Shown in pieces: positions 1,887 through 30,493 of a stretch of DNA of 51,037 nt. The DNA comes from an uncultured Nostoc sp. (lineage in GTDB: Bacteria > Cyanobacteriota > Cyanobacteriia > Cyanobacteriales > Nostocaceae), in assembly GCA_964252435.1 (NCBI GenBank), contig CAXUOL010000002.1, positions 1-51,037 of the forward strand. The letters run 5' to 3'. Under the pieces are notes generated by a model. That model saw only the letters and a program-made list of their open reading frames with translations, made no database searches and had not been told where the DNA came from. The translations under genes were made by a program, and so were the position numbers. Each line of letters begins with the position of its first letter. Within the stretch, counting starts at the first letter, position 1.

Positions 1887-1915
1887 AAGTACACCATTTG
1901 TTTTTGTCAATTTAA

Positions 1916-3175: not shown

Positions 3176-3304
3176 CAAAAGCGATAACTTCGTTGAGCTC
3201 CGCTAACGCCGGAATAATTGCCGCGATCGCACATTAATCTTGATTATCTGGATCTATGCCATCTCAGTTCTATGATAGAAACAAGCCACTCTTTGGTTTA
3301 ACTT

Positions 3305-3901
3305 ATGTCTTCCCCTGTCCTGGAAAACCCTACGACTGCTGAGACTTCCTATGTTCTTCTGTACAATGTCAGTTGGGAACAGTTAGAACAGCTTGATGTC
3401 ACCCTTGCAGGGACAAGCGCACGACTAACTTATTTAGATAATATTCTCGAAATTATGTCCCCACTTTCTGACGACCATGAGGACAGTAAAAAAACTCTGG
3501 CGATGTTGCTGGAAGTCTATATGCGGACGAAAAAGATCCGGTTTTATGGACGAGGAAGTGCAACCATCGGTAAAAAGTCAGACAAAACGCGACGAGAACC
3601 GGATGAGTCTTATAATTTAGGGGCAAAAAAACCTATTCCCGATTTAATTTTGGAAATAACTGTCACCAGTGGCGGAATTAATAAGCTAGAAATTTATCAG
3701 CGTTTGCGAGTACCTGAAGTCTGGTTTTGGGAAGATGGTTTGTTATCAGTTTATTGTTTGCAAGGTGACAGCTATATAAAAGTCACTAGAAGTACTTTAT
3801 TGCCTGATTTAGATTTAGATTTATTAGCAAAATATGCGCGAATTGCTGACCAATATGATGCTGTGACTGAATATAGTCAGATAATAACTAAAGTAACCTG
3901 A
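3305..3901 (+). CDS. Uma2 family endonuclease
   Basis: VSWEQ...LEIMSP...EPDESY...PDLILEI...KLEIYQRLRVPEVWFW. Confidence 0.9.
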   Translation: MSSPVLENPTTAETSYVLLYNVSWEQLEQLDVTLAGTSARLTYLDNILEIMSPLSDDHEDSKKTLAMLLEVYMRTKKIRFYGRGSATIGKKSDKTRREPDESYNLGAKKPIPDLILEITVTSGGINKLEIYQRLRVPEVWFWEDGLLSVYCLQGDSYIKVTRSTLLPDLDLDLLAKYARIADQYDAVTEYSQIITKVT

Positions 3902-3935
3902 ACTAAAATTATTTCCGTCTAAATCTGAAAAAAAT

Positions 3936-4022
3936 ATGGTTAACACCTATGACGAAATTTTCGATGCTGCATTGTCTTTGCCTTCAGAGCGTCAGCCAAA
4001 TTATTGGACTAATAGAATCTGA
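3936..4022 (+). pseudogene. Internally deleted copy of the 1366-1886 TA pair (28-codon fusion)
   Basis: MVNTYDEIFDAALSLP (antitoxin start) is joined in frame to (SE)RQPNYWTNRI* (toxin end). Confidence 0.85.
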
Positions 4023-4039
4023 ATAAGTAGCTTAATACA

Positions 4040-4566
4040 AGATTATCTGGATCTATGCCGAGCGATGTCTAACGACAAGCCGCTTCTCTACGAGAGGCTC
4101 TGCCAACGCGTCTACGCAATTTTTCTGCCATCTGTTGAGCGCGTTGTTCTGCAACTTCAGCGCGTTTTTGTACTAATTTAATCTGTTCTTGAGGCGTAGG
4201 ATAGCGTTTTCCTGACCGATCGTACCAATAAAGCCATTCTCTAGTTACACCAGAATAATTGCCGCGATCGCAGCCAATTCCTAAGCCAATTTCCGGTAAC
4301 CAAACCGGATTTCCTGCTTGCAATTTATACTTGCCATTCACTAATTTATGCACTTCTAAACGCGGTTTGCGGCGACGGCGAGAAGAATAAATTATGTAAT
4401 AAAGTACGCCTAAATCTGCATATTCATCTAATTTAGTTGTATATTCCTTGCGATACGTTTGAGAAACCACCTCTAGCACTAAACTCGGTAAAACTTTTTC
4501 TTCCCACAACGCATAACTGGGACGGTAATAGAGTTTCACCGTCGGCCAAATTTGAAGATAATACAT
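4040..4566 (-). pseudogene. Uma2 family endonuclease, 5'-truncated, with a small repeat inserted near the 3' end
   Basis: RPSYALWEEKVLPSLVLEVVSQTYRKEY...; the N-terminal part is missing and the tail GIDPDN is separated by a repeat insertion. Confidence 0.75.
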
Positions 4567-4618
4567 CTAGATATTGGTTGATTTGCTGACAAACTTCTGT
4601 GTTGTTCATAATTTTTAG

Positions 4619-4831
4619 TCAATCTTTTATTCTTAACTTTGAGAATCTTGCTTTCTTTTATTTGCTTGCTCAATGCGTTGCTTAATTGCTTCCTCAGCTA
4701 TACGAATATTTTCTTCTATTGGTGTACCGTCTTCAGCTACCATTAGCCCGTACCATGTTGCTTCCGAGTCAGGAGGATTACAGCGACTAAACAAGACACG
4801 AATAGCCTCATCATCATCTCGATGTGCAAGT
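4619..4831 (-). pseudogene. DUF6887-like gene truncated at the IS607 left end
   Basis: LAHRDDDEAIRVLFSR...EDGTPIEENIRIAEEAIKQRIEQ is homologous to 1916-2158; the 5' end is absent. Confidence 0.7.
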
Positions 4832-4893
4832 ATGATAAAACTTTAAAGAAAATATAGTCTAACATAGTCAGATGTAGTCTAAACTTCAGTCTA

Positions 4894-5478
4894 ATGAAAT
4901 TGTCTGATTATGCTAAAACTTTGGGGATCTCCTATCTTACAGCTTGGCGACATTACAAAGCAGGTAAAATACCATACCCAACAGAACAACTCCCTACAGG
5001 CACGGTAATTGTTGATTACGATCCAAAAAAGATATCAGGGGATGTTGTTAAAGTCGCAATTTATGCCAGAGTTTCAAGTGCTGAGAATAAAGATAATTTA
5101 GATAGACAAGCAGAAAGGTTGTCTCAATACGCTATCGCCAAAGGATATCAGATTGCTTATGTCATAAAAGAAGTAGGGAGCGGATTAAACGACAATCGCA
5201 AAAAACTAGAAAAGCTCTTTCTCAAAGATGATTATGATATTTTGCTAGTCGAACACAAAGATAGACTCTTGAGTTTTGGTACACATTATATAGACATTTT
5301 ACTTAAAAGATTAGGAGTAAATCTAGAGGTTGTTAATTTATCTGACAATGGACGGGATGAATTAATGCAAGACTTAGTGGCGATAATTACCAGCTTTGCT
5401 GCACGATTATATGGTCAGCGCAGGGCAAGACGGAAAACAGAAAAAATTGTGGAGACAATAAATTCTCAGACAGACTGA
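4894..5478 (+). CDS. tnpA: IS607 family transposase (serine recombinase)
   Basis: MerR-like HTH N-terminus, IYARVSS, EVGSGLN, EHKDRL, DLVAIITSFAARLYG. TAGTC direct-repeat motifs upstream (4855-4893). Confidence 0.93.
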   Translation: MKLSDYAKTLGISYLTAWRHYKAGKIPYPTEQLPTGTVIVDYDPKKISGDVVKVAIYARVSSAENKDNLDRQAERLSQYAIAKGYQIAYVIKEVGSGLNDNRKKLEKLFLKDDYDILLVEHKDRLLSFGTHYIDILLKRLGVNLEVVNLSDNGRDELMQDLVAIITSFAARLYGQRRARRKTEKIVETINSQTD

Positions 5479-5719
5479 AATATATTTTATAGTCAAATAT
5501 ATCTTATTGTCTCTTTGGTGATATACTAAATTTCATTGCCAAAATTTGATCAATATGCGTCAGGTTGAAAAGCACATAGTAAAAGAGGGGCATGAATGGT
5601 TTAATTATTGCAAGGAAATTACTTTTGTAAGGATCGTGGATTAAATAAGGTGTAATACTGCCAATGATATCTATAACACTAGAAGGGTAGATGAAGAACT
5701 GGTAGATGATGCGCCCAAA

Positions 5720-6168
5720 CCCAAGGGTGAAATTGAAGTTCAAATGCAACGATACTATGAGTCGTTGTCAGAGAAAGATAGCCGCCGATATGCCGCGATC
5801 AAAGCAGTAAAACTAGAGTACGGCGGGCAGGCATATATCCGCCGCTTGCTCTTATGCCATCACGAAACCTTATCCGCCCCATACCTCCAAGTACAATCCG
5901 ATTGAGCATCGTTTGTTTCCTCATATTTCTCGCGTTTGTCAGGGGGTGATTTTTGAGAGTGTCCAGACTGTAAAAGACCTAATGGCAACGGCAACCACCC
6001 GAACAGGACTCAAAGTGTTTACGACGATTCTCGATAAAACCTATCAAACAGGCCGAAAAGTGGCTCTTGATTTCAAATCAAATATGAAGATTGTTTTTGA
6101 TGAATTCTTGCCGCAATGGAATTACACCGCTAAACCAGAGTTACAGGTTATTTAATCCACGATCCTAA
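5720..6168 (+). mobile_element. ISAzo13-family transposase remnant (internal deletion)
   Basis: N-terminal piece (YESLSEKD.RRYAAI.AVKL.YGG) fused to a C-terminal piece (SKYNPIEHRLFPHI...TTRTGLKV...PQWNY). Confidence 0.8.
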
Positions 6169-6369
6169 GTGCGATCGCTCTGCCTTTTTTATAACTCTCG
6201 GTTCACCCATTTTTTGATGAGTTAGAAAAAATAGCAGTAGATAAAGATATTTTAAGTGTTAAAAAAAAATAATACCTTTGAGTTAGCCTTGTTCAGACTC
6301 TCGGTTAAATCGGCTAGCCGAGAATTATGTGTAACATAGATCACTACCAAGCTAGAGGGAAGTTTCAAA

Positions 6370-7713
6370 ATGCTTGCATTTATTTTAAAACCAACACAGA
6401 TACTTGAACGCATACTATCTGCATCGCTAATTAGTTTGATGTCCTTAGAGGTTCTTACCACCGCAGCGGTTGGCCAACCGCTCCCTGCGTCTATTGAAAC
6501 CAAGCTGAAAGTGCCTAGTACAATGACCTCTTGGCCCTTTAATACTAACCGTTACTTGAAAGTGCCGCCCAATTTCTCCGTCTCAGTTTATGCTCGCATT
6601 AACAAAGCTCGCTTTATGGCAGTTGCTCCCAATGGGGATCTTCTAGTTTCACAGCCCAGTTCCGGTAAAGTATTAATTGTCCGGCCAAATGGCAGCAAAG
6701 ACCCAATTATTTCTGACTTCGTAACGGGTCTACGCAAACCTCACGACATTGTGTTTCATAAGATTGACAACACCACATACATTTATATCTCTGAGACTCA
6801 TCAAATTAACCGCTTCATCTACAACTCTGGAGACTTAATCGCCAAAAATCGTCAAATTGTTGTAACTGGCTTACCAGACCGCAGCACACGGGAACTCAAA
6901 GGCACTTATGGTCACGAACTGAAAAATATCGCACTTGATGCCAACCACAAACTGTACGTGTCAATTGCCTCTACATGCAATGCCTGTAAAGAAGATACTG
7001 TCAGTACTCCAAAACGTGGTGCAATTTACCAGTACAACGCTAATGGAACCAATCAGCGACTTTTTGCCCAAGGTTTACGTAATGCTGAAGGGTTAGCATT
7101 TTTACCTGGCACAAATGACCTTTGGGTAGTCGTTAATAATCGAGATAACATCGCCTATCCCTTCAAAGATAGCAGTGGCAATTACGGTAAGATTTTCCCC
7201 TCCTACGTAGACAACCACCCACCAGAAGAGTTAACGAAAGTCCGAGATGGCGGTAACTACGGTTGGCCATTCTGCAATCCCAATCCTGACAGGCCAAACG
7301 GCCTCAACAATATGCCATTTGACTGGGATTATCAGTTAAATCGTGATGGAAAGGTTAATTGTAATGCAATGGACAGGATTAGCAAAGGTATCCAAGCCCA
7401 TTCGGCTCCCTTGGGACTAACATTCTTACAAAATACCAACTTCCCCAGCCTATACTCAAATGGGGTAGTGACAGGGCTGCATGGTTCATGGAATCGGCAG
7501 AAGAAAACGGGCTACAAAATATCTTACTTTCCCTGGAACAGTACGACAAAGACCCCAGGGCAGGAGATAGATTTAGTCATCGGTTGGGTAGTTCCAGCAA
7601 CGCAAGAAACCTGGGGGCGACCTGTGGATATGGTAGTAGACCAACAAGGTAATTTGTTAATTTCGGATGACTACAGCGGCACTATCTATAAGCTCTCCTA
7701 CACGCCGTCATAA
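6370..7713 (+). CDS. Secreted PQQ-dependent sugar (glucose/sorbosone) dehydrogenase
   Basis: Signal-like N-terminus; GLRNAEG, GGNYGWPFC, AHSAPLG, HGSWNR, GRPVD, LISDD beta-propeller motifs. Confidence 0.88.
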   Translation: MLAFILKPTQILERILSASLISLMSLEVLTTAAVGQPLPASIETKLKVPSTMTSWPFNTNRYLKVPPNFSVSVYARINKARFMAVAPNGDLLVSQPSSGKVLIVRPNGSKDPIISDFVTGLRKPHDIVFHKIDNTTYIYISETHQINRFIYNSGDLIAKNRQIVVTGLPDRSTRELKGTYGHELKNIALDANHKLYVSIASTCNACKEDTVSTPKRGAIYQYNANGTNQRLFAQGLRNAEGLAFLPGTNDLWVVVNNRDNIAYPFKDSSGNYGKIFPSYVDNHPPEELTKVRDGGNYGWPFCNPNPDRPNGLNNMPFDWDYQLNRDGKVNCNAMDRISKGIQAHSAPLGLTFLQNTNFPSLYSNGVVTGLHGSWNRQKKTGYKISYFPWNSTTKTPGQEIDLVIGWVVPATQETWGRPVDMVVDQQGNLLISDDYSGTIYKLSYTPS

Positions 7714-17523: not shown

Positions 17524-18886
17524 ATGACACCTCCAGAAAATCAAAACATCATCGAAGAAAGAAAAGAACTAATTAAAGAAGTTCTCAGTGCTTACCCAGA
17601 AAAAGCTGCTAAAAAGCGCGAAAAGCACTTAAGTGTATACGAAGAAGGTAAGTCCGATTGCGGCGTTAAGTCTAACATCAAATCCCTTCCAGGTGTAATG
17701 ACCGCTCGTGGTTGTGCTTACGCCGGTTCTAAAGGTGTGGTTTGGGGTCCTATTAAGGACATGATCCACATCAGCCACGGGCCTGTAGGTTGCGGTTACT
17801 GGTCTTGGTCTGGTCGTCGTAACTACTACATCGGCACCACAGGTATTGATACCTTTGGTACCATGCACTTCACCTCTGACTTCCAAGAAAGAGATATCGT
17901 GTTCGGTGGTGACAAGAAACTTGTTAAGCTCATCCAAGAACTTGATGTACTTTTCCCCCTTAACCGTGGTGTTTCCATTCAATCTGAATGTCCCATCGGT
18001 CTAATTGGGGATGACATTGAAGCAGTTGCTCGCAAGACATCCAAAGAAATTGGCAAGCCAGTTGTACCCGTTCGTTGCGAAGGCTTCCGGGGTGTTTCCC
18101 AATCTTTGGGACACCACATTGCTAACGACATGGTTCGTGACTGGGTGTTCACCAGATCCGATCAAGCTAAGAAAGACGGTACACTCAAGTTTGAAGGTAC
18201 TCCTTATGATGTAGCCATCATTGGTGACTACAACATCGGTGGTGATGCTTGGGCTAGCCGCATCCTGTTAGAAGAAATCGGCTTGCGCGTAGTCGCTCAG
18301 TGGTCAGGTGATGGCACCATCAACGAAATGTTGATGACCCCCAATGTGAAGATGAACCTCATCCACTGTTACCGGTCGATGAACTACATCAGCCGTCACA
18401 TGGAAGAAGCTTATGGTATACCCTGGTTGGAATACAACTTCTTCGGCCCCACCAAGATTGCTGAATCTTTACGGGAAATCGCTTCCAAGTTTGACGAAAC
18501 AATCCAAGCAAACGCTGAGAAAGTTATCGCCAAGTATCAGCCAACAATGGATGCGGTAATTGCTAAGTATCGCCCCCGTTTGGATGGTAAGACTGTTGCC
18601 ATCATGGTTGGTGGTCTACGTCCTCGCCACGTTGTCCCAGCTTTCCTAGACTTGGGCATGAAGATGATTGGTACAGGTTATGAGTTCGCTCATAATGACG
18701 ACTACAAACGTACCACTCACTACATCGAAAACGGCACCATCGTTTATGACGACGTCACCGCTTACGAATTCGAGGAATTTATCAAAGCCCTCAAGCCTGA
18801 CCTAGTAGCTTCTGGTGTGAAAGAGAAGTACGTCTTCCAAAAGATGGGTCTTCCTTTCCGTCAAATGCACTCTTGGGATTACTCCG
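17524..18886 (+). CDS. nifD: Nitrogenase MoFe protein alpha chain, 5' part (interrupted)
   Basis: [20 protein letters not shown]; homology ends at the repeat and the ORF runs on into element sequence to 18966. Confidence 0.98.
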
Positions 18887-19139
18887 AACCTAGCGATCGC
18901 TCCTCAACATCATATAATGCAAGGTTTTTTAGCGGCGGGAGAAAAAAGAGCCTATTTCTAGCCTAAATGTAAGTTGCAGGGTTATTTAGGAACAATCTGT
19001 TTTGATGCTTTAGACAGTATAACTCTTATGGAGTCTGGTTTTTAGGATTTGCTTGCATTTTGCTCAAAGAAAAACTGTAAAATAAAAGACTATTTAAAAT
19101 GACGATTTTTTAGATTAAATGGTGCGATCGCTTTTACCA

Positions 19140-19616
19140 CTAGAGTTGCTTAATAAGTTTGGCTGCTAAATTTTCTGCTGAAGACAGTATGTTAATGGCA
19201 GTCTTGACATCGTTTGAGTCAAAGGATCTACTGAAAGTATTAGTTTTACTTGAAACTAAAAAGTGTAACCTTATTTTTTTATAACTCCAGAATAAAATAT
19301 ATGACTTTTTACTAGAGACTGTCACGGATAAAGTATCACTAACCTCACCACGCAAGACGAAATCTTCTGAAAATTCTCCTGTATATTTTTCCTCCTCCAG
19401 AAGCTCCATTTTTTTGTAAGCCTTGTTAAGGGCATCTATCAATTTATCAACCTTAGAGCTAGATACAACAGCTACTCCAGGATTATATCTTCCATCAAGT
19501 CCTGGAACAAAAAAGCGAATGTACCACTTACTTTTCTGTGCAGCATCACGATAAGCAATTAATGATGTTCTAATATTTGATAATTCGAGAGCTTGCTCAA
19601 GTTGTCTAGGATTCAT
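19140..19616 (-). CDS. Hypothetical protein
   Basis: 158 aa AT-rich ORF; no motif recognised. Confidence 0.55.
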   Translation of the reverse strand: MNPRQLEQALELSNIRTSLIAYRDAAQKSKWYIRFFVPGLDGRYNPGVAVVSSSKVDKLIDALNKAYKKMELLEEEKYTGEFSEDFVLRGEVSDTLSVTVSSKKSYILFWSYKKIRLHFLVSSKTNTFSRSFDSNDVKTAINILSSAENLAAKLIKQL

Positions 19617-19750
19617 TATGGTAAATTAAAAATACTTTTATCATTTTATGAGACTAAATTATGGCATAGCCACAACTCGACAATAAGCTATTATAAAACT
19701 GATAAAGTTAGAACTTTTGCATAAGGGTGCAATATGCTTGTTAGCGAGAT

Positions 19751-20683
19751 TTACTCAGCATCGCTTGATTCCACTATACCTTTTTCTCCATTTCGGACCC
19801 AATCCTCCCAGTATGGGCATCTTCTTTTTAGAAATTCTCTTCGCTCATCAGTTATATCTATTGTTTTATCAAAAGCTTCATTTATACCAAAAATCTTCAA
19901 TAACCTATTTGCCAAATGAGGCCCTAGCTGAAAAGTTGGAGGAATAGATAATGCTTCATATTTCCCATTAGCATTTAATCTAATTGTTATGGCATTATGA
20001 AGTTCTCTATCACATGACAGCCTATCATAACTCATTAATTCCATGCCATCGGACATTAATGACATGCGTTCTTTTGACTTTGTTGCATCAAACTCAAACT
20101 CATTTCTTCTACCATATATTAGGAGCATATGAAGTTTCATCTGCCTCTCATTTCTCATATAATTAGGAATCTGATACTGCTCTAAAAATTGCTGCACATT
20201 TGATGGGCTACTAAACCAAGTTTTCCACTGCTCTAGCTGATTTCTTGCCTGTGTGAAATTAGAAGTAGGTTGACCGTTATTTTTGAAAATATTTTTAGAA
20301 GGACTTTCAATCTCAATTAAAGTCGGATACCAGCCAGAACTGTGTGTTGCTATCCACATAAAATCAGGAATCCTTGTTGTCAGTCCCTGCAATTTAGGCT
20401 GTGTGATTAATGCACAATGTAGTGGATAATGACCAGATTTTGTTCCTGGTGTCCAAGCTCCCGGAATAAAAGATGGGTTTTCTTCAAAGAATTTCTGAAG
20501 CTCTTTTTCAGAACTTGTAGTATCAAGCAGCATCTTGTACTTTTTATTGCGTTCTTCCCTATATGTATCAATATCAAATTCTTTTGGGCTTTTCTCTATA
20601 ATGTATGTCTTTTTAAAAATCATATTTGGATAACTAGTTATTATGTGGAAAAATTTTAGTGTATATACCTTCGCAAATTGCAT
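19751..20683 (-). CDS. Shedu (SduA/DUF4263)-like anti-phage nuclease
   Basis: EKELQKFFEENP, IPDF, LIEIESP, ARNQLEQW, LLIYGRR, MSYDRL: the PD-(D/E)xK pattern typical of DUF4263. Confidence 0.75.
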   Translation of the reverse strand: MQFAKVYTLKFFHIITSYPNMIFKKTYIIEKSPKEFDIDTYREERNKKYKMLLDTTSSEKELQKFFEENPSFIPGAWTPGTKSGHYPLHCALITQPKLQGLTTRIPDFMWIATHSSGWYPTLIEIESPSKNIFKNNGQPTSNFTQARNQLEQWKTWFSSPSNVQQFLEQYQIPNYMRNERQMKLHMLLIYGRRNEFEFDATKSKERMSLMSDGMELMSYDRLSCDRELHNAITIRLNANGKYEALSIPPTFQLGPHLANRLLKIFGINEAFDKTIDITDERREFLKRRCPYWEDWVRNGEKGIVESSDAE

Positions 20684-20793
20684 CCTAACAGGATGTCAAA
20701 GTTTTGATTCATAGTATATATACGGTATTTTCTTAGACAACATCAATATATAAGTACTAGACATATCTTGTCCACAATAAGTAGACCGTTTTA

Positions 20794-20976
20794 GCGATGT
20801 CTACGATGGGCTACGCCTACGCCCTCACTTGGCAATAAACTAGGCGATGTCTACGACGGGCTATTCGGTGTCGCATTAAACTGTCCAATCCTCAATTAAC
20901 AATCCGGCTACTCTGCTGAAATCCCGATGATTGCGCGTTAATAAAACTAATTTACGAGAAAGTGCGATCGCAGTAA
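20794..20976 (-). repeat. Direct repeat copy A (3' remnant of a PIN toxin gene, HIP1-bounded)
   Basis: Aligns with 21864-22034; encodes ...TRNHRDFSRVAGLLIEDW. Confidence 0.85.
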
Positions 20977-21034
20977 AAGAAGTAGACTGTTGTAGCGATC
21001 GCTAGTTAAATAACATTTAGGTTACTTGTGATAC

Positions 21035-21448
21035 TCAATCAGACAACAAGATCGCAAAGCCTTCTTGGGTGAAGTGTTTATCGTGTGTCAGTACCTCTAT
21101 GATCTCCAGTTGACGCATGGTGTGCATAGAAATGCAATCTGTCAAGCTATAGCCTTTATCAAAACGTTGAGAATACAGAGCTAGACCACCTAAAAAGGAT
21201 TCGCGTGTTTGGGGAATAACTTGAACCCGATCATTTTGTAGAATGCTTTGTGCTAGTTGAAATATTCCGCTTCGGGTGTATCTACCAGCAGTTGAGAAAT
21301 AATTCACAAACTCAGTCAGCACTTCATCGGTTGTAATTAGTTTTGTTTGCATCAGCGATTTGTGTATGTCTTGAGTGCGGACATGCCATGCATCTCTTGG
21401 ATTAGCAAGCGCTATCCAGTAAAACGTGTCTACGAAAACAGGATTCAT
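21035..21448 (-). CDS. VapC/PIN-domain toxin
   Basis: VFVDTFYWIAL, VLTE, YSLTDCIS, LTHDKHF. Confidence 0.9.
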   Translation of the reverse strand: MNPVFVDTFYWIALANPRDAWHVRTQDIHKSLMQTKLITTDEVLTEFVNYFSTAGRYTRSGIFQLAQSILQNDRVQVIPQTRESFLGGLALYSQRFDKGYSLTDCISMHTMRQLEIIEVLTHDKHFTQEGFAILLSD

Positions 21449-21777
21449 GCTGATGTTTGAGAAGTTCCATAGAGATACTGGTCGTGCTGCTCTGCGCTAT
21501 CTGTGTGCAAGTTAACAAGTTCTTCAGAAGGAATGCTCTGAGCAAATTGCTCAAACTCGTTGAAGAGATTTTGTAAGGAGTTATTTGCTTCAACAGGAGA
21601 AGCAATTACTTGAGTGCTATCTGCTTCTTGAATACTATCTTGATTAAAACTTTGCAAGCTGCTAGATTGTGCCTTTACAGACTGTAAAAGGTTCAAAATT
21701 GCCTCAATCAGTTCCTCTGGTGCTTGCTCAATTTCCCGAAGAAGTTGCTCTTTTGCCGTCATTGCTGATACCCTCAA
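21445..21777 (-). CDS. Antitoxin (DUF2281-like)
   Basis: KEQLLREIEQAPEELI...D.AEQHDQYLYG; overlaps the toxin start (ATGA). Confidence 0.75.
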   Translation of the reverse strand: MRVSAMTAKEQLLREIEQAPEELIEAILNLLQSVKAQSSSLQSFNQDSIQEADSTQVIASPVEANNSLQNLFNEFEQFAQSIPSEELVNLHTDSAEQHDQYLYGTSQTSA

Positions 21778-21863
21778 GCAAATACCTTAAATCTTACTAT
21801 TAAGTTTAACTCTTATCACTCTGACCCCATAAAAAACACTGCGTATCTAGGGATTTTATAACT

Positions 21864-22034
21864 GCGATGTCTACGACGGGCTATGCCTACGCGCTCACTC
21901 GACAATAAACTAGGTAAACCGTCCAATCCTCAATTAACAGTCCGGCTACTTTGCCCAAATCCCGATGATTGCGCGTTAATAAAACTAATTTACGAGATAG
22001 TGCGGCGAATAGCCCGTCGTAGACATCGCAGTAA
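21864..22034 (-). repeat. Direct repeat copy B
   Basis: Aligns with 20794-20976. Confidence 0.85.
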
Positions 22035-22081
22035 CATTCCCTATCATTCCCCGCAGATAATGCAAACTTAACCAATCGCTC

Positions 22082-22313
22082 CTATGCTTATACTGCAATA
22101 TGGGAATTTGCTAAAATCAATGACTTTTGCATCATAACTCAAGATGTAGACTTTGCAGAAAGAAGCCGTTTGTACGGTTCTCCACCTAAAGTTGTATGGC
22201 TACGCTGCCAAAATGCACCAACAAAACAAGTTGAATCTCTACTTCGTTCTGGGGTGGAGGTAATTCAAGAGCTACTTAATAATCCAATTCTGCATTGCCT
22301 AGAATTGTACTAA
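22082..22313 (+). pseudogene. DUF5615/PIN-like toxin, 5'-truncated
   Basis: Reads AIWEFAKINDFCIITQDVDFAERSRLYGSPPKVVWLRCQN...LELY* with no start. Confidence 0.75.
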
Positions 22314-22395
22314 AGCTTTGCGAGGGATTGTCTATGAAATTCACAATTGCGAAAAAATAGATTCATCTACTTGCGAGAACAAAGTGTTACACAAA

Positions 22396-22995
22396 TTAAC
22401 TACTGAATTGCTGAACAATTGTCTGTACAATTGCCAAAATCGCTCCTACGTTATCCAAGTAATATCTTTGCTTATCAAGCAAAGCCACTTTTTGCGAAAG
22501 TTGCAGAAACTGCCATACTTCTCCTGTTGTCACGCATCCATACACAGGTATTTCTGTTTGTCCAGATGAACGATTGAATAAATCCGCCGCTACCATTTGC
22601 GCGATGCACTGTCCTAACCCAGCTTCAACATCATTTTTCTTCGCTTCCACAACAGTGATAATTGGCGATCGCAACGGTGGTAAAGGTGGAGCTATTGCTA
22701 AAATAAAATCACATTCCCCAATCAAACCCTGTGCAGGATCAACATCAAGTCTTTGTCCTGAGAAAATAGCCAAACTATCTTGGCTCAGATCCCGACAGGT
22801 TAGTAAAATCGGTACAATAATAAATTCGCTCCGAGCTTTTTCACTAATCAGAGCTAATTGGGTTCGCTTTCCTAAAGTTTCATTTAACCACGAAGGAATA
22901 GAAAGAGGTACAAGCTTGGGAAACAAATCTCCTTCTTGGGTGGTGATTCCCAAAACGGCCGCAGCTTTTTCTAGAGTAAAGTCGCTATACGCCAT
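22396..22995 (-). CDS. Conserved cyanobacterial PD-(D/E)xK-like protein
   Basis: MAYSDFTL...SEKARSE...GECDF...VVEAKK...GLGQCIAQM...TTGEVWQF. Confidence 0.7.
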   Translation of the reverse strand: MAYSDFTLEKAAAVLGITTQEGDLFPKLVPLSIPSWLNETLGKRTQLALISEKARSEFIIVPILLTCRDLSQDSLAIFSGQRLDVDPAQGLIGECDFILAIAPPLPPLRSPIITVVEAKKNDVEAGLGQCIAQMVAADLFNRSSGQTEIPVYGCVTTGEVWQFLQLSQKVALLDKQRYYLDNVGAILAIVQTIVQQFSS

Positions 22996-23134
22996 AGTTT
23001 TGTACTGCTTTGAGTATATGACGTTATAAAAGGGAATTACTTTTATTTTACCTTGTTGTAGAGTTGTCAAAGGATTCTGTGTGATAATGCTCCCGAAGTA
23101 GTACTTGAAAATTTTTGAAGGCTAATTTGCCAAA

Positions 23135-24673
23135 TCATTGCGGATTCATCCGAATCAAGTCTGTTAAAATACTATCCAAACTGCCGTTAACTTGAATCCG
23201 ATCAATCTTCTCTGCAATCCGCTCTAATACTTCGAGTTCCTTTAGACGCAATGCAACGGGGTTATCCTCCATCACTTTGGCAGTGTTTAGCATACTGCGG
23301 GTAGCAGCAGTTTCTTCTCTACGTCTAACTACGTTGGCTTGAGCAGCTTTTTCTGCCTCGACTACCTTACTCAAGATAGTCTTAATCTCACCAGGTAAAA
23401 TAATATCTTTGACACCTACAGAATCTACTTCAATTCCATAGTCTGCGGCTTTCTGGCGAATGTATTCAGAGATACTTCTATCAATTGCACCTTTATCTTC
23501 TAATAAAGTATCTAAGTTGCGTTCGCCGACTGCACCGCGCAAAGCAAACTGTAATTCTTTGTATAAGAACCCAGAAATATCTGATAAGCCGTTTTTTGCC
23601 CTCAATGGGTCTTGGATACGGAAGCCAGCGGTCAAATTCAACCGCAGAGGTACTTTATCTTTAGAGAGGATGTCTTGACCGGATACTTCCATATTTTGCA
23701 ATCTCAGGTCAATGGTTTCGGTTTGAAAAGAGCGTCCAAATAACCACCAAGCGTGTACCCCTGGCGATCGCTGTCCTTGAAACTCTTGATTAATGTATAC
23801 TAGTCCAACGTGTTGTGCAGGAACTTGGCAAATATGCAAACAGTTGCGACTGAGCAATTTCACTTCTGCTGAACCCTCAACCAACTCAGCCACTAAGTTA
23901 GGCTGTAACTGAGCATCAGCGCTAATATCGAGAATTTCCACTGCAACACCCTGCCAAAATAACTTGCGGCTGGTGGGCGGCAAAATAGAAATCACTTTTC
24001 CTCGGTATCGCACAATTGCAACTTGTGAAGCCAGTAATTGCACGGTTTCACAGTAAGCAGCAATAAAGTCGGGATGTTTTTCAATGAGTACATCTTCCAG
24101 AGGAAAATCTGGGTTAGGGATAATCCGGCTGAGAGTTCGGACGGTAACATCTCTATCTACCGACCAAAAAGCATACTCTCCTGGTTCTAGAGGTCGCACA
24201 AAATTGTTTTGCAGATATAGTAAACCAATCTCAGACTCTGAAATTTGGAACTTCTTTACTCCATTCAACGCAACTGAGCGCAATTGCTGTACAAAGGAAC
24301 TAGGCAATTCCCAGCTTTCTTCCAAGTTGAATATATAAGACTCTACTTCAATAAAACCACGCCAAAAAGCAATCAATTTATTTGGTGCAACGCTTACCCA
24401 ATTCTGACCGTAGCGGACTAACGCAACTTGATTGAATGCAGTTCTGATAATCAATAAGTGTTCTTGTAGTTCGGCTTGGTGATTTCGCAACAACAGTTCT
24501 AGGTTTTCAATCTGAGCTAGTGGCTGATTGAGGTCATAAATTTTTACTTGCCAATGCCGACCTAAATATGTATGTGTACCGGGTTGCAAAATTTTCTTAA
24601 AGTCACTGCGGTGATATAAGATGCCGATTTCGTTAGGTTTAATATAAAACGTTTGCCACATAGTAATTTGCAT
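23135..24673 (-). CDS. SPFH/band-7 (slipin family) protein
   Basis: Repeated N-terminal L.PG.Y.FW units, then DLRLQ.MEVSGQDILSKDKV, VKDIILPG, RREETAATRS.LNTAK. Confidence 0.92.
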   Translation of the reverse strand: MQITMWQTFYIKPNEIGILYHRSDFKKILQPGTHTYLGRHWQVKIYDLNQPLAQIENLELLLRNHQAELQEHLLIIRTAFNQVALVRYGQNWVSVAPNKLIAFWRGFIEVESYIFNLEESWELPSSFVQQLRSVALNGVKKFQISESEIGLLYLQNNFVRPLEPGEYAFWSVDRDVTVRTLSRIIPNPDFPLEDVLIEKHPDFIAAYCETVQLLASQVAIVRYRGKVISILPPTSRKLFWQGVAVEILDISADAQLQPNLVAELVEGSAEVKLLSRNCLHICQVPAQHVGLVYINQEFQGQRSPGVHAWWLFGRSFQTETIDLRLQNMEVSGQDILSKDKVPLRLNLTAGFRIQDPLRAKNGLSDISGFLYKELQFALRGAVGERNLDTLLEDKGAIDRSISEYIRQKAADYGIEVDSVGVKDIILPGEIKTILSKVVEAEKAAQANVVRRREETAATRSMLNTAKVMEDNPVALRLKELEVLERIAEKIDRIQVNGSLDSILTDLIRMNPQ

Positions 24674-24910
24674 AAATAATTTGTGTGATAGCTTAAGTTA
24701 GCTAGGCGATGCCTGCGGCGGGCGTAGCCATCGCAACTAGCTAAGAAGATTTGATCTACACATTTATAACCTTGCTTGAACTCAAATACCACCTGTGTCT
24801 CACAGCTTAACTACTGGAGTAGACAGAATTTATTTTGAGGTTCTTTGGGCTTTACAACCCTGTAAACAAAAGCTAAAGGATTAATTTTAGCCTTTCGTAC
24901 TACTATATAC

Positions 24911-25148
24911 TACAAAAAAATTATTTACTCTGCCAGTGCAGGTTTTTACAGTTTCGGTGCGGGCAAAAGCTTCTCCAAAACTGGATTAAGATTGCTGCTA
25001 CTTTTTTCAAACTGCTCAATGGCAATCTAAAAAAAGAGAACTGCGCTCAAATATGCCGTTCGCTTTGCCACTCCAGAATCCCCAAAGGAAAACCGGATGT
25101 AGGAAAAGGAAGGAACATACTCAAGTTAGGGAGAGATACAGTTGCGCT
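24911..25148 (-). repeat. ~238-nt repeat copy 1 (candidate structured ncRNA)
   Basis: Aligns end to end with 25479-25713, roughly 80-85% identical by eye. Confidence 0.9.
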
Positions 25149-25476
25149 GCGCTGCATTGTGAATTTCTAATTTCTCTAAAATATTCTCTAGAATCCACCT
25201 TTGAGCAGCTTTAAGTTCCGGCTTAGGTGCAGAAATAATTCTTTCTCCACCTGTCTTTTTTGAGATTTTGAAAGGGAGGTAATGTCTATTTAGGGATGTA
25301 CTAGTTGTTAAAAAGCGCAGTTTTTCTAGGCTTATCCCCATCGCCAAGGCGATTTCTTCGGCAGTATTATATTCAGCTAAACCATGCGATCGCAAAAGTG
25401 CTAAATTTTCAGTTTGCAACTTTTCTAGATTACTTTCAGTCGCTAATGGGGTAGTAGTTATATTTTTACTGTACAT
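25126..25476 (-). pseudogene. Retron-type reverse transcriptase, N-terminal fragment
   Basis: EIALAMGISLEKLRFL...HY..FKISKKTGGERIISAP.PELKAAQRWIL.NIL...HNAA is the RT0/RT1 region. It stops before the palm (no YADD), where repeat copy 1 begins. Confidence 0.88.
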
Positions 25477-25478
25477 AA

Positions 25479-25713
25479 TACAAAAGATTTTTTTACTCTG
25501 CTAGTACAAGTGTTTACAGTTTAGGTGTGGGCAAAAGCTTCTCCAAAGCTGGACTAAGATTGCTGTTACTTTTCTTCGACTACTCAATGGTAATCTAGAA
25601 AAAAGAACCGCGCTCAGATATACCGTTCAATTTACCAATCTAGAATCCTAAAGGAAAACTAGATGTAGAAAACAAAGGGACATACTCAAGTTAGGGAGAG
25701 ATGCAGTTGCGCT
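25479..25713 (-). repeat. ~235-nt repeat copy 2, immediately upstream of the RT start
   Basis: Aligns with 24911-25148; ends 2 nt before the RT ATG. Confidence 0.9.
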
Positions 25714-25873
25714 TACTCCTTGACTGTGGCTATCGAACATTACTCTTATGAGTAATGACCGACAGCAGAACACTTGCACCGCAGAGTTGAGAAAATGAGG
25801 GGTCTCGAATCTGTTAAGATCCGTACCATATTGGCTACCTTGGAAGGGTATTGTCTTTTAACCCGGACAGGGT

Positions 25874-25948
25874 TGGGTGAAAGTATAGGAATCGAACCTA
25901 CAACACATCGATTATGAGTCGATTGCTCTACCAGTGAGCTAACTTCCT
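25874..25948 (-). tRNA. tRNA-like gene, anticodon CAU (Ile2/Met-like), non-canonical
   Basis: (A)GGAAGT TA GCTC ACTGGTA GAGC A ATCGA CTCATAA TCGAT GTGTT GTAGG TTCGATT CCTAT ACTTTC A C CCA. Cloverleaf with an unpaired 1:72 position and C73. Confidence 0.8.
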
Positions 25949-26023
25949 GGGGTTTGATACAGGAGTTGAACCTGTGACGCATCGATTATGAGTCGATCGC
26001 TCTGCCAACTGAGCTAATCAAAC
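25948..26023 (-). tRNA. tRNA-like gene, anticodon CAU (Ile2/Met-like), 76 nt with encoded CCA
   Basis: GTTTGAT TA GCTC AGTTGGCA GAGC G ATCGA CTCATAA TCGAT GCGTC ACAGG TTCAACT CCTGT ATCAAAC C CCA. All four stems pair perfectly. Confidence 0.9.
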
Positions 26024-26389
26024 GATGGTATAGTTTAAAAGTACTCGGCGGTATACGCTTATGCAAAAGCTTGACGCACCAGTTAGGCTTATGGAACCTA
26101 AACCATAGCTTTGTAACTTTGTTACTATCCCGCTCCAAATTTAGCATAAAGGGATTCGGGAATGGGTATAACCACTAGCCTAGTGCGGAGCATCGCGGCA
26201 GCCATTCTTCTGGAAGTATGGCAGTAAGTTGCCAGCAATTTTAGCACGTGAGGAACTTTAAGGCGCAAATCACCAATGCAGAGATGCCCATTGTTAGGAT
26301 TAAAAAAATTTGGGTAGTTTCTATTTAGGTATATATCAAAGTCCAGATGGTGACAACCTTAGTGGAGGAGGTCGTACAATCCGGCTTAA

Positions 26390-26419
26390 TTTATACTGGC
26401 AGTAGTGGATATTCTTCAA
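26390..26419 (-). promoter_or_regulatory. Putative sigma70-type promoter for the tRNA-RT-SPFH unit
   Basis: Minus strand TTGAAG-N18-TATAAA. Confidence 0.35.
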
Positions 26420-26430
26420 GGCTGTCATAT

Positions 26431-26557
26431 TAAGCTGTTAAACACTTAATTTACACATTTAGACAGCAGGGGAGCAGAGGGGCAGAGGAGCAGGGGAGAA
26501 GGATTGACGCTTTTTCTCCAAAATCAACAATATGCAAGTTAAATGCGTATTAGCTTA
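26431..26557 (+). mobile_element. ~127-bp MITE-like element
   Basis: Imperfect terminal inverted repeats TAAGCT.../...AGCTTA; near-identical inverted copy at 39903-40029. Confidence 0.8.
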
Positions 26558-26635
26558 TCTTGACAGTCCGCCCCAAAAAAGCATAGTGTTTTCATTGATA
26601 ATTGCCAAGGAAGTTTGAGCAATTATTCTTGGGCT

Positions 26636-27214
26636 TCAGTCTGGAAAAGCTAAACCAGTCATGGGGTCACGAATATACAACCCTAATGTGAGACTACGCA
26701 TAGCTTCATCCCAAACGGGTATTAATTGTTCTGCTTGATCTACCCAATAATCGAATGTAATTAAGCATTGAACATTCGACCCCAAACCAATGCAAGTCCG
26801 CGAAAAGGCTTCCCGTGGTTCTTCTTGAGTGTCAATGAACTTCATCTCTGTCCAGACAATTCTGGCAGTTTGACGCTTGACGGTAATAATTTCTCCCCTC
26901 TCAATGACGTTGCGACTGTCGTCTTCCAAGACTTTCTTCAAGGTGGATTTTAGCGGGAACTGGCTCCAGTCATTGGGTGGCAGGCGATTAAAAGATACTT
27001 CTAGACAGCAATCATCGTTGGGCGGTTTTTTATCCATGAACTTGAAGGATTTCTCTTGTGGCTCAAAAACCCAATTCTGAGGAACATTGAAACGAACAGC
27101 GCCTCTATCTGCGACAAAAATTTTGTAACCTGATGGAGATTCCCAGCGATGATCGGGTTTTAGTTCAAGTGTTTCTTTTATCCACTGAAGATTGCTTTTT
27201 TTACGCTTTGCCAT
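26636..27214 (-). CDS. Conserved hypothetical protein
   Basis: Clean ORF from MAKRKK; the upstream extension to 27277 comes from small-repeat sequence. Confidence 0.7.
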   Translation of the reverse strand: MAKRKKSNLQWIKETLELKPDHRWESPSGYKIFVADRGAVRFNVPQNWVFEPQEKSFKFMDKKPPNDDCCLEVSFNRLPPNDWSQFPLKSTLKKVLEDDSRNVIERGEIITVKRQTARIVWTEMKFIDTQEEPREAFSRTCIGLGSNVQCLITFDYWVDQAEQLIPVWDEAMRSLTLGLYIRDPMTGLAFPD

Positions 27215-27446
27215 AGTGTTTCTGCATTTTCTGTTGAATAGGGCGTCACCGATAGCGTAGCGTAAAGCCTTTGGCATAGCTTCTTTACAAGACGCTACGC
27301 GTAGCTTGCTTCTCCGTAGGAGTATGCTTAGAGCGACGCAGGAGCGTCGTCACAGCCCATCGTAAACATTGCCCTTTTTGTTAATATTATCAAATTGCTA
27401 GGATTTTGAATAACTCTATCAAGGAATCCAAGGTAACTGTAACGTT

Positions 27447-28396
27447 GTGATTAAAGTTTCAGCTTTTAGCATTAAAATCTTAGCAGCAGTATTCATGGTT
27501 ATGGATCATCTGTGCTATTTGCTAATGCCAGAGTTGGTAATCTTGCACTTATTAGGGCGATTGAGCTTTCCCCTCTTTGCATGGCTTCTGGCTAAAGGCG
27601 AAAAACATACCCATAATGTACACCGCTATGGGAGAAGACTATTAATTACAGCAATAATATCTCAGCCAATCTATAGTATTGTTTTTCAGAGTTTATCACT
27701 TAATATTCTGTTCACGCTTCTTCTTGGACTTGTGATGTTGCGCTTATTGACATCCTCCCACCACTAATTCGGAGTACCGAATATAGTGGGGGATTCCAAA
27801 GATTGCTCTTTAGGTTTCCTCTTTCCACGACCCGACTTACTTGGAGGAGTTTCCCCACCCACGCTCTTGTCGATGTCTCCAGAGGCGTTAGTTCCGACGT
27901 GACCCGCCGTACTTAATGCTTTTTCTAATATGTTCCTCGCTACGTTCCAGTCACGATCTTGGGTATGTCCACAATTAGGACAAGAATGAGTTCTAGTGCT
28001 AAGAGATTTTTTCACAACCTCGCCACAATTAGAGCAATTTTGCGAAGTGTAGTGTGGTGGAACTGCAACCGTGACAACACCAAACACCTTACCAAAATAC
28101 TCAACCCATTCACGAAACAGCGACCACGAAACGTCACTAATCGATTTGGCCAATCGATGATTCTTGACCATATTCCGCACCATCAAATCTTCATACGCCA
28201 CAAGGTCGTTAGACCTCACTACGCACCTTGCCGTTTTAACAGCAAAGTCTTTACGTTGGCGACTTACTTTGAGATGCTTGCGAGCAAGTTTATTTCTAAA
28301 CTTGACTCTGGTTCACGAGCTAGATGGTTCTATGTCTTTTACCCGGCTCATTTAATAATTTTAGGTATAATCAATTATTTAATCCAGTCTAGGTAA
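27447..28396 (+). pseudogene. TraX family membrane protein disrupted by a tnpB remnant
   Basis: IKILA..FMVMDH...GRLSFPLFA..LA.G..HT...LNILFTL up to 27746; C-terminal WFYVFYPAHL resumes after ~28313. Confidence 0.82.
27747..28312 (-). mobile_element. tnpB: IS200/IS605 remnant: 3' part of tnpB plus right end
   Basis: AYEDL, YTSQNCSNCG, CPNCG..QDRDWN; subterminal hairpin and terminal GAGGATGTCAA. Confidence 0.9.
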
Positions 28397-29438
28397 GATT
28401 TCTATATCTATTTAATCCACGTGCGGTTATAAGATAAACTACAAACGTTCCCAACCAATGACTACTAGAATAATGGTCACTTGCAACATCTACCAACCCG
28501 CATTGGCGATGTAAAGCAGTAACAGAACGCAGGGTATTGAGTCGAGAATCGTTATCGGGTAATCGAGAGATTATTCCCTCAAGCATCCAAGCTCGACTGA
28601 GATTTAAACCCCGAAAATGAGATTGTAAATAGTCGTTGGGTTTAGTTATTTGTACAGGTTGCAACCAGTTTACTCCGTCTTCTGTGAGTAAATGTGGAAG
28701 AAAATCGGTAAGCCAATTTGCAAAATCTGTTGGTGAAAGAATGCGTCGCATTAAATCTGCTTCTGCAAGACAGGGAGAGACAAAATCATAACCCAATGGT
28801 TCAAAATGCAATGGATAGTTGCGATCGCTCTGATAAAATTTTTGGGCTTTGTCTTCAATCAGATCGGCAAAGTCTTTATTCTTCTTACTTTGCGCCCAAT
28901 CGAGTGCTAAACCAAGTGGAAACGCCGTCTGAAAGTGTGCTCCAGTGCGATTGGGAAGTTCGAGTTTTTCAAGCCAGCGATAAAAGTTGTTGGCAACTAA
29001 GGTTTCTAGGGGTTCTAACGCCGCTAGCCATTCTTTCCCTTGAGAATCATTCCATTCACGCAATTCCGTCGCCAGTTGCAACAGCCATGAAAATCCATAA
29101 GGACACTCAAAGAAGGGACATCGATTAAAATGGTTAATTTCTCCTTGAATTTTTTCTGGAGTCAGGGTTTGGGTTAGTGCTTCCCTTGCTGTCGGCTGAA
29201 ATTCAGCATCAGGAAAATAACGAGCTAGCCTTGCAAGTAACCAATGCCCATGTACGGCAGAATGCCAATCCAAACAACCATAAAATGCTGGCATTAATTC
29301 GCGTGGCGGCTTAATGTCCTCATCGCTTTCAAACCAAAAAATATTGTTGTGCGGATACTCTTGGTTAATGCAGTTCAGCACCAATTGAACAAACTGGGCT
29401 GCGATCGCTACGTCAATCTCTATTGCTTCGAGTTGCAT
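28389..29438 (-). CDS. DUF2891 family protein
   Basis: EYP, PAFYGCLDWHSAVHGHW, FE.PYG.SWLL, GLNLSRAW, HWLGTF. Confidence 0.85.
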   Translation of the reverse strand: MQLEAIEIDVAIAAQFVQLVLNCINQEYPHNNIFWFESDEDIKPPRELMPAFYGCLDWHSAVHGHWLLARLARYFPDAEFQPTAREALTQTLTPEKIQGEINHFNRCPFFECPYGFSWLLQLATELREWNDSQGKEWLAALEPLETLVANNFYRWLEKLELPNRTGAHFQTAFPLGLALDWAQSKKNKDFADLIEDKAQKFYQSDRNYPLHFEPLGYDFVSPCLAEADLMRRILSPTDFANWLTDFLPHLLTEDGVNWLQPVQITKPNDYLQSHFRGLNLSRAWMLEGIISRLPDNDSRLNTLRSVTALHRQCGLVDVASDHYSSSHWLGTFVVYLITARGLNRYRNLT

Positions 29439-29497
29439 GGTTTCTCAGCAGTAGTCTTACAATTACCTTTTTAGCATTATTAATACTCTATTACAAT

Positions 29498-30493
29498 TCA
29501 ATTCCTTTCTAAATTAAGTTTCACTGCTAAGTCAAATAATCTATCAATGTTTTGATTTGTTTTATCTAAGCTAACTTCATCTAAATATAGTTCAATAGGC
29601 ATCGGTAGCGCACTTGCATAACGATTTGTTTCTGCCCAGTAGGTAATTGTTTTTACAGTCCGAAAGTCTGGGTCGCAGTTTAGATACATTCTACCTATAC
29701 CTGCTTTTTTATTGAAGCGTAGGCTGCTTTTGGGGATTGGTAGCCATAGGTAACATTGTAAATGATTAAGTTGCTCAAGCTTGGTAGACGCAATAAACTT
29801 TAATTGACAGCAAGGCTTTGTTCTACCACGCCCATAAAATATACTCTTGACTTCCTTAATTTCTTTGATACGTTGATCGTAAGATAGCATTTTTTCTCTC
29901 AGCCTCAAAACCTCTGTTTTGGTTACAGGAGCAAGTTTATCCAAGAAATTTACTAACATTCTTGGTGGTGAATCAATCTGATTTACGGACATCAATAATT
30001 CTTGAGTCTCTTGAATCTCAAGAAAAGGAATTGCTTTTGGCACAATAAACTCTTTACGTCCTTCGAGATATAAATGCAAATAAAAATTATTGGTATGACT
30101 GATAATTGAAAATCGGATAAATTCAAATTGCAACAAATTGTAGCGACGGTCAATAAAATTATGTTTATGAAAATCGGGAGCAATTGCAATTAAACGAATG
30201 GGCTGGCTATAATCTATCAATTCTTTCAAAGGTTGCTCTAAGCTGAGACTGTGATAGTAGCGAGTGAGTTGATGGATAATGTAGCGATCCTCGCAATTTT
30301 TGAGTTCTAATACAGCCAGTTGATTGTTTTTTGTTTTAGCAAGAATATCACAATACTCTCCCTTAATGTTCAATTGGCGTTTAAGAGGAATCAAATCTAA
30401 AGTACTTTCTAGGCAATCCCAAATAAAATCTTCTAGCAGATATTCTTGTGCAAATATCCAACCTTGTTCAGTTTTCCTCAGCACACTCTTCAA
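29498..30493 (-). CDS. NucS/EndoMS-like nuclease domain protein
   Basis: E..LEDFIW...RQ...CDILA...VLELKN...QLTRYY...IRLIAIAPDF. Confidence 0.75.
   Translation of the reverse strand: MKSVLRKTEQGWIFAQEYLLEDFIWDCLESTLDLIPLKRQLNIKGEYCDILAKTKNNQLAVLELKNCEDRYIIHQLTRYYHSLSLEQPLKELIDYSQPIRLIAIAPDFHKHNFIDRRYNLLQFEFIRFSIISHTNNFYLHLYLEGRKEFIVPKAIPFLEIQETQELLMSVNQIDSPPRMLVNFLDKLAPVTKTEVLRLREKMLSYDQRIKEIKEVKSIFYGRGRTKPCCQLKFIASTKLEQLNHLQCYLWLPIPKSSLRFNKKAGIGRMYLNCDPDFRTVKTITYWAETNRYASALPMPIELYLDEVSLDKTNQNIDRLFDLAVKLNLERN

Follow-up and report, generated by a model that had tools for sequence, protein, structure and literature searches.

We analyzed a stretch of 51,037 nt from an uncultured Nostoc sp. (contig CAXUOL010000002.1 of assembly GCA_964252435.1; hereafter, the window), in which a gene for a slipin, a Band-7 protein, is preceded by a cassette of small RNAs designated lead RNA, tRNA mimics and rod RNA. 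This cassette is probably a conserved cyanobacterial version of the predicted Band-7/b7a-tRNA RNA-repair module, with the retron-type reverse transcriptase (RT) gene beside it being a dispensable addition, broken in the window. The cassette is conserved, structured and, in locus L183 from another genome (G606), abundantly transcribed up to the 3′ end of the rod RNA. The system lies entirely on the minus strand and contains, in this order, a putative promoter, the ca. 105 nt lead RNA, two tRNA mimics, the ca. 290 nt rod RNA, a TrcR-type box, the RT relic, a truncated second rod, a TrcR box and the slipin gene (Table 1, with coordinates of the whole window). A preliminary description of this DNA had already placed the tRNA-like genes, the repeats, the RT fragment and the slipin gene on this strand and in this order. 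Intact Nostoc loci begin with a lead, mimics A and B and a rod, continue with an RT (ca. 361 amino acids), and end with a second lead, a UAU mimic, a second rod and the slipin gene. Counts over 80 loci refer to the best 80 of the 456 slipin loci found, a set skewed to Nostoc, the genus of the loci nearest to that of the window.

The rod RNA precedes the slipin gene in all 80 loci. Its fold has a z-score of −6.2, with none of 200 shuffled sequences being as good, and is closed by a terminal stem pairing both ends of the RNA (25787–25495). Among 40 copies chosen for their diversity, pairing holds in 92.5 % of the cells and two-sided changes occur in 25 of 61 pairs, compared with 13.9 pairs in shuffles and 8–17 with slid partners; none of 500 shuffles reached the observed value, in a count biased in favor of the structure because this was derived from the same sequences. 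Hairpins are gained or lost among copies as whole units, while the rod has an invariant G at a junction, pairing ends and two inner hairpins. The most conserved unpaired element is the UCCA bulge (25550–25553), whose letters coincide with those of a tRNA 3′ end; the possibility that it pairs with the loop of the lead RNA was discarded, with the complement present in just 8 of 82 leads. The rod did not match any Rfam family, and its identification as a Y RNA, SRP RNA, RNase P RNA or group I intron was rejected in the absence of Rfam matches at E 5–10. Likewise, a coding role for the repeat was rejected by stop codons in all three sense frames and by indels of any length.

The two repeat copies noticed previously are real, being 84 % identical over 245 columns, although the long hairpin and the second repeat, listed separately, are one and the same RNA. 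Neither is the first repeat an independent element, but a second rod truncated at its 5′ end (model positions 69–290). Comparison of the window with the intact locus L033 produced two aligned blocks and ca. 1,210 nt missing from the window; this deletion took the last two thirds of the RT gene together with the second lead, its mimic and the beginning of the second rod, joining RT codon 110 to the remainder of the latter. The repeat is thus a duplicated rod RNA.

The lead RNA was found in 78 of the 80 loci. In an alignment of 25 copies, 10 of 20 pairs show two-sided changes, a value not reached by any of 500 shuffles, and no Rfam family matched it. Of 150 genomes sampled across the phylum, nine matched the lead model, each match lying beside a long slipin gene. 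Conserved similarity to the relatives begins around position 26165, and the region before it is mostly not conserved; the ca. 350 nt leader proposed earlier gives way to a putative promoter around 26145 and a separate RNA of ca. 105 nt. Lead and rod are weakly recognizable beside slipins of 63–68 % identity, and the shorter, more distant slipins of loci L137–L139 were not accompanied by any match to the cassette profiles; in L137 (G056:C99), the gene for a 383 amino acid slipin follows a different duplicated, tRNA-like non-coding region missed by these profiles. A plasmid search produced, in 26 records, matches to the tRNA part only. No description of the lead and rod RNAs was found in the literature searched, including five terms without matches in the supplements of PMC4734099, although some published RNA or transcript tables may still list them.

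Both tRNA-like CAU genes of the preliminary description were recovered by ARAGORN and by the Rfam tRNA model, with 64.1 (26023–25948) and 56.8 bits (25948–25874), and a tRNA was called in 77 of the 80 loci. The CAU anticodon is not an identity, because 34 kinds of anticodon occur among the 205 distinct tRNAs called ahead of a rod; 90 distinct copies of mimic A have 21 kinds, and 95 of mimic B have 16. Moreover, 53 of the 205 have a malformed loop or an anticodon classed, in a list of our own, as unusual for bacterial decoding (UAU in 26, AUU in five, ochre UUA in one, and others). Most positions of the body are conserved in at least 80–90 % of the copies and the middle and last anticodon bases in ca. 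70–80 %. With 21 and 16 different anticodons on the same bodies, the anticodon is not conserved with the body as in a translational tRNA-Met or tRNA-Ile2. Additionally, the bodies differ from the three other CAU tRNAs of the genome, and mimic A is decayed in L183. A variable anticodon on a conserved body suggests tRNA mimics better than decoding tRNAs. The first base of mimic B is the last A of the mimic A CCA (25947–25948), and after cutting just one of them can hold that base. In L119 (3980–6380; G055:C60), a mimic is interrupted by a group II intron with its own RT, and a short RT lies upstream of two cassettes.

Locus L183 encodes the Alr0740 protein itself behind the same cassette and a gene for YdeI, and lacks an RT. 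We examined its transcription in three runs of a single study, with growth conditions unstated. Sense-strand depth was ca. 1,800–7,000 over most of the cassette, with a dip to ca. 600 between mimic and rod, and 0–43 over the flanking genes, the RNAs being transcribed more than 100-fold above these. The 5′ ends clustered at 4593–4597, just downstream of a site matching P1, and depth fell from ca. 4,000–5,300 to ca. 20 at the 3′ end of the rod (after position 5122). The RNAs are therefore abundant in these samples and barely run into the slipin gene. Together with the second TrcR-type box before the slipin gene, this makes it doubtful that the whole array is one operon, as had been supposed.

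Of 152 distinct rod ends, 106 have a similar TrcR-type box no more than 45 nt away, compared with 0.7 % of random windows and, in the window, the box before the slipin gene overlaps its predicted −10 hexamer, as in the TrcR regulon. According to the part of PMC10272220 available, in Anabaena sp. PCC 7120 TrcR represses the Alr0740 gene along with rtcB and the tRNA L-array, expression of alr0739 and alr0740 increases 71- and 42-fold in a trcR mutant, and TrcR shifts the alr0739 promoter, the one case of shown binding. In Supplementary Table 2 of PMC9938897, also available in part, a microarray list containing rtcB, the L-array, alr0739 and alr0740 is headed by probe alr0738_igFwd, with the greatest change; from the gene order, this probe would cover the cassette, and the authors suggest erythromycin as a possible cause of its effect. 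The L-array tRNAs of Anabaena are charged and similarly regulated, as stated in the accessible passages of PMC8421152; the genome of the window has its own array of 28 genes (G000:C1:44276–46744). The same genome encodes RtcB on another contig, with a TrcR-type box upstream, and the link of the cassette to RtcB is thus one of shared regulation and not of adjacency. The slot after the rod is occupied by KptA/Tpt1 in four loci of one genus, by YdeI in several loci, and by an L-PSP (RidA-type) gene in another genus.

The slipin is 80 % identical to Alr0740 (BAB72697) and was found in 197 of 389 family genomes (E 1e-100). Its ratio of nonsynonymous to synonymous substitutions (dN/dS, calculated here and below pairwise between related sequences, with intact copies only) is 0.07. 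The membrane role previously attributed to it is not supported, with no transmembrane segment and a maximum 19-residue hydropathy of 1.5. In a structural model with a predicted local distance difference test (pLDDT) score of 83, repeated β domains are combined with an SPFH domain and one long helix, the pLDDT of the N-terminal part modeled alone being just 41. Its best local match is stomatin (Z 17.7; root-mean-square deviation, rmsd, of 1.1 over 104 residues), while the major vault protein (MVP) matches more of the chain, loosely (Z 12.5, rmsd 11 over 223 residues). Foldseek aligns MVP to the model over ca. 580–630 columns with E down to 1e-13 and a TM-score of ca. 0.3; the VIA Z for MVP is 11–12.5, with rmsd of ca. 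10 or more, versus 17 for stomatin. There was no MVP match by sequence profile, nor any Pfam vault family at E 0.01. A much bolder interpretation of this model, which we deem quite unlikely, is that of a vault-like ribonucleoprotein: a soluble SPFH cage of MVP-like repeats, switched on by translation stress, would hold both of the new abundant RNAs along with tRNA decoys of exchangeable anticodon, and some lineages would have domesticated a retron RT, deprived of its msr-msd and effector, to copy or bind the cage RNA.

The 116 amino acid open reading frame of the RT has RT_XIII as its best PADLOC match (E 7e-32), and the RT of an intact relative matches the same model with E 3e-149. Type XIII retrons (clade 10; Mx162, Mx65, Sa163, Ne144) are defined in PMC7736814, of which a part was available; the combination of a clade-10 RT with NAxxH, YADD and VTG occurs in the intact relatives and not in the window, where YADD and VTG are lost, in agreement with the proposal that this was a broken retron-type RT. 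Its prediction that intact versions exist also held, with 10 intact copies among the 80 loci and 28 distinct intact short RTs in the same layout, each with a rod beside it; the association of the RT with slipin and tRNA genes in other genomes indicates that it is not a one-off insertion. A core role of the RT in the system is not supported. A protein search over the 80 loci found 10 intact and 19 broken RTs, and a DNA profile detected a trace in 30, with none in the other 50. RT matches (E 1e-40) in 96 of the 389 family genomes leave at least 101 of the 197 slipin genomes without an RT.

Canonical cyanobacterial type XIII loci contain, in this order, WGR, SWIM, msr-msd and an RT of ca. 470 amino acids, and have their own conserved RNA, in accordance with the definition in PMC7736814; cassette RTs lack the ca. 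110 N-terminal residues. Among 62 distinct RTs free of stops, counting those of L242 and L259 as long, all 28 short RTs had a rod in the locus and none had a canonical msr-msd, whereas a rod accompanied 1 of 34 long RTs and a canonical msr-msd 18 of 34, in both cases within the fetched DNA. SWIM was not found in seven short-RT genomes (with G398 as a positive control), and WGR was not adjacent to short RTs in the fetched loci. A profile of eight canonical type XIII msr-msd RNAs did not match any rod at E 10, and gave 30 matches at E 4e-6 or better in canonical loci; a DNA search for msr-msd in five short-RT genomes, with no positive control, was empty. The rod was also considered as a divergent type XIII msr-msd and rejected: two short motif likenesses fall on the msd arm, not on the junction, in the canonical fold; 21 of 40 shuffles reached the sense pairwise alignment; and the antisense alignment, reached by 1 of 40, had a tiny margin (21.5 vs 20.2) with non-independent pairs, which does not establish homology. 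Some canonical loci carry two msr-msd copies, and several long RTs have none in the fetched DNA (L240, L249, L251, L113).

The constant company of rod and short RT, compared with its rarity beside long RTs, could indicate a re-purposed retron, in which the shortened RT would use the rod, or else the lead, in place of an msr-msd of canonical type to make branched cDNA and, with the slipin, would form a sensor-effector unit, cassettes without RT being the ancestral RNA host. Retained catalytic motifs with dN/dS below 1, a layout repeated across three or more genera and in a second family, and the pairing ends, invariant junction G and two inner hairpins of the rod, as in the msr-msd RNAs described in the available part of PMC7736814, are all compatible with this idea. 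We nonetheless consider it unlikely. The 28 RTs form two clades, 19 with YADD and nine with YVDD, 56–58 % identical to each other, and hence represent one or two events; a single origin was neither demonstrated nor rejected, with a p-AU (approximately unbiased test) of 0.44 for 30 of the 62 rows under LG+G4 and a bootstrap not fully settled, and we infer that the short RT entered the slot once or twice. Besides the failure of the canonical profile and of the sense alignment, the rod is conserved and expressed in G606, where no such RT was found, and the RT is broken twice as often as it is intact. The absence of detectable msr-msd homology, and of SWIM matches in the seven short-RT genomes, also argues against calling the unit a retron, and the retron-defense framing of the preliminary description is weaker than the RNA cassette to which it pointed.

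Cassette duplication and RT go together: 19 duplicated loci have an RT trace and two do not, compared with 11 single loci with a remnant and 48 without. All 10 intact RTs are in duplicated cassettes, and the broken ones show many different breakpoints. The RT could consequently be a hitch-hiker without a role, a piece of a type XIII retron caught in a tandem duplication and now decaying, with an unrelated function for the cassette, and one orphan full-length type XIII RT does lie by chance near a cassette. This divergent RT (L260:7874–13321; G408:C60), with no SWIM, WGR or msr-msd nearby, is 1.6 kb from a lead-mimic-rod-slipin unit. Open frames maintained across the deep divergence of the two clades, with dN/dS of 0.16–0.28, make a mere passenger distinctly improbable, even if these intact copies were selected for the count. 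Very improbable is the alternative that the mimics are working stress tRNAs (Met or Ile2) topping up the L-array, with the rod merely the structured leader or terminator of the slipin gene, because the good cloverleaves with encoded CCA, the charging and shared regulation of the Anabaena L-array (PMC8421152) and the end of L183 depth at the rod closing stem and U-run are outweighed by the unusual anticodons or wrong-size loops in about a quarter of the copies, by the distinct bodies and the decay of mimic A, and by a rod that accumulates as an abundant RNA with inner motifs a terminator would not need.

In the reading of an RNA-repair module with an optional RT, P1 would make the cassette RNAs; when translation is blocked, TrcR would fall and P2 would switch on the slipin gene and the gene in the slot after the rod (KptA, YdeI, RidA-type or RT). 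The slipin might form a soluble cage binding the rod and lead RNAs, and the mimics, with anticodons free to change, might offer decoys or docking shapes to anticodon nucleases and to RtcB, which is encoded elsewhere. During translation stress, RNAs and cage would then work together with RtcB in buffering or repairing cleaved tRNA and rRNA. The RT would have entered the slot when the cassette was duplicated in tandem, and its N-terminal coiled coil would have been lost. Not found with msr-msd or SWIM, it would remain under weakened selection, with dN/dS of 0.28 and 0.16 compared with 0.08 for full-length type XIII RTs, and would often be lost again, as in the window.

Several observations weigh against this reading. 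The 28 intact short RTs keep the NAxxH region, Y(A/V)DD and VTG almost throughout, with dN/dS below 1, which is more than a passenger needs. The RNA-RT-RNA block occurs away from the slipin gene in three genomes (G530, G541 and G536), a split that looks secondary because the gene that elsewhere joins the block to the slipin gene follows the block in G530 and G541 and precedes the slipin gene in G536. In L183 slipin mRNA is scarce despite the abundance of the cassette RNAs, which may therefore work without the slipin. Binding of rod and lead RNAs by the slipin is a supposition, and in the gradient rows visible in PMC11797042 Alr0740 peaks at fraction 5 in three controls and one RNase replicate, with no clear shift. 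RtcB is not encoded in the window, as previously noted, and is not adjacent to the slipin gene here, other loci not having been systematically searched; and CAU remains the most frequent anticodon (92 of 185 copies of mimics A and B).

These results give a concrete and testable form, in a lineage with good genetics, to a Band-7/tRNA-mimic module that was predicted and unvalidated as of a 2018 preprint. It was already known that the slipin orthologue rises ca. 40-fold without TrcR, yet without an assigned function; the module now has two abundant, covarying RNAs without an Rfam entry, tRNA mimics with drifting anticodons and a named repressor. Having lost its own RNA and partners, the retron enzyme has remained next to a foreign RNA and, if it works on that RNA, would represent a new route of retron domestication. 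The window copy is a relic, and the wrong one for testing RT function.

The locus is cargo of a 27.9 kb nifD excision element, with nifH before it and nifK and nifE after it, and 41 of the 80 slipin loci have nif genes within 8 kb. Since in other genera the unit sits elsewhere, the element is a carrier and not part of the system. It also carries defense-type cargo (19751–20683, 21035–21777, 22396–23070, 29498–30493 and 32396–33139), comprising Shedu SduA, a PIN toxin with a small upstream open reading frame, a PD-(D/E)xK protein, a NucS-like nuclease and a DNA methylase. A 213 amino acid protein (26636–27277), without matches in Pfam, NCBIfam, PADLOC or PHROG, is encoded near the cassette in most Nostoc loci, at a variable distance. 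The window also has a TraX-like gene split by a TnpB-type remnant (27447–28396).

Table 1. Features of the slipin locus and of its carrier element in the window.
Feature	Coordinates	Strand	Basis
P1, extended −10-like site before the RNA cassette, putative promoter	26138..26148	-	Sequence; kept in relatives; L183 RNA 5′ ends just downstream
Lead RNA, ca. 105 nt, three-way junction	26027..26131	-	Covariation; 78/80 slipin loci
tRNA mimic A, CAU, CCA encoded	25948..26023	-	ARAGORN; Rfam tRNA
tRNA mimic B, CAU, A1-A72 mismatch, G3-U70	25874..25948	-	ARAGORN; Rfam tRNA
Linker with small hairpins; third tRNA mimic here in some relatives	25788..25873	-	Relatives, sequence
Rod RNA, 293 nt; long terminal stem, optional hairpin, imperfect rod, UCCA bulge, Y-shaped end	25495..25787	-	Fold, covariation, 80/80 slipin loci
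TrcR-like box after first rod, one mismatch, overlaps RT start codon	25475..25482	-	Motif from PMC10272220 (part available)
RT relic, shortened type XIII retron RT, codons 1–110 of ca. 361, ends at NAxxH; YADD and VTG lost	25126..25476	-	PADLOC; alignment to relatives
Second rod RNA, 5′-truncated, model positions 69–290	24927..25148	-	Model alignment; deletion relative to L033
P2, exact TrcR box overlapping −10 hexamer, putative repressed slipin promoter	24907..24914	-	Motif from PMC10272220 (part available)
Slipin, 512 amino acids, Band_7; N-terminal β repeats, SPFH domain, coiled coil	23135..24673	-	Profile and structure model
Dispersed repeat, ca. 135 bp, similar to a miniature inverted-repeat transposable element, outside the system	26428..26562	.	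More than 20 copies, 92–99 % identity, in the genome of the window (G000)
nifD excision element, 27.9 kb, with the locus as cargo	18876..46828	.	11-bp direct repeat at 18876 and 46818; integrase; nif neighbors
Integrase, far end of nifD element	45235–46608	-	PHROG match

Comparison with known systems showed partial likeness to several of them. The vault, an MVP cage with vault RNA, resembles the slipin model in its predicted β repeats, SPFH shoulder, long helix and lack of membrane anchor, and differs in the low TM-score, a VIA Z below that of stomatin and the lack of an MVP sequence-profile match. Rsr/TROVE systems with Y RNAs (YrlA, YrlB; PMC4201824) share several RNAs cut from one precursor, tRNA mimicry, long closing stems and a repair context, although TROVE had no match in G000 (81 % complete) and no Rfam Y RNA reached its cut-off; the YrlA score of 25 fell short of the cut-off of 69 and came from the tRNA dimer, which is a known false positive. 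Type XIII retrons share the RT family with NAxxH, YADD and VTG, but the cassette RT lacks the N-terminal residues, has neither WGR nor SWIM adjacent and no SWIM found in the seven genomes searched, and lies beside an RNA that is not detectably the type XIII msr-msd.

The cassette is also related to the TrcR regulon and the Band-7 module. In the TrcR regulon of Anabaena sp. PCC 7120, alr0739-alr0740 is a member with the same box and −10 overlap, and the cassette and RT are not described in the available passages and supplements of PMC10272220 and PMC8421152. The b7a-tRNA, with whose description the mimics agree, is a predicted RNA beside Band-7 and RtcB genes, unvalidated in 2018 according to the part available of the preprint (bioRxiv 10.1101/312249), and an SPFH gene is present in the rtc locus of Pseudomonas aeruginosa (PMC13086221). 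Unlike that module, the cassette has no adjacent RtcB, would be controlled by TrcR instead of RtcR/sigma-54, and contains between one and three mimics that vary in their anticodon, as well as two additional structured RNAs, a longer slipin with more N-terminal repeats and an optional RT. Both share a Band-7/SPFH gene with a tRNA-like RNA directly upstream, coregulation with rtcB and KptA-type repair genes in the unit, supporting the link to a Band-7/tRNA-like RNA-repair theme that had been drawn from the window.

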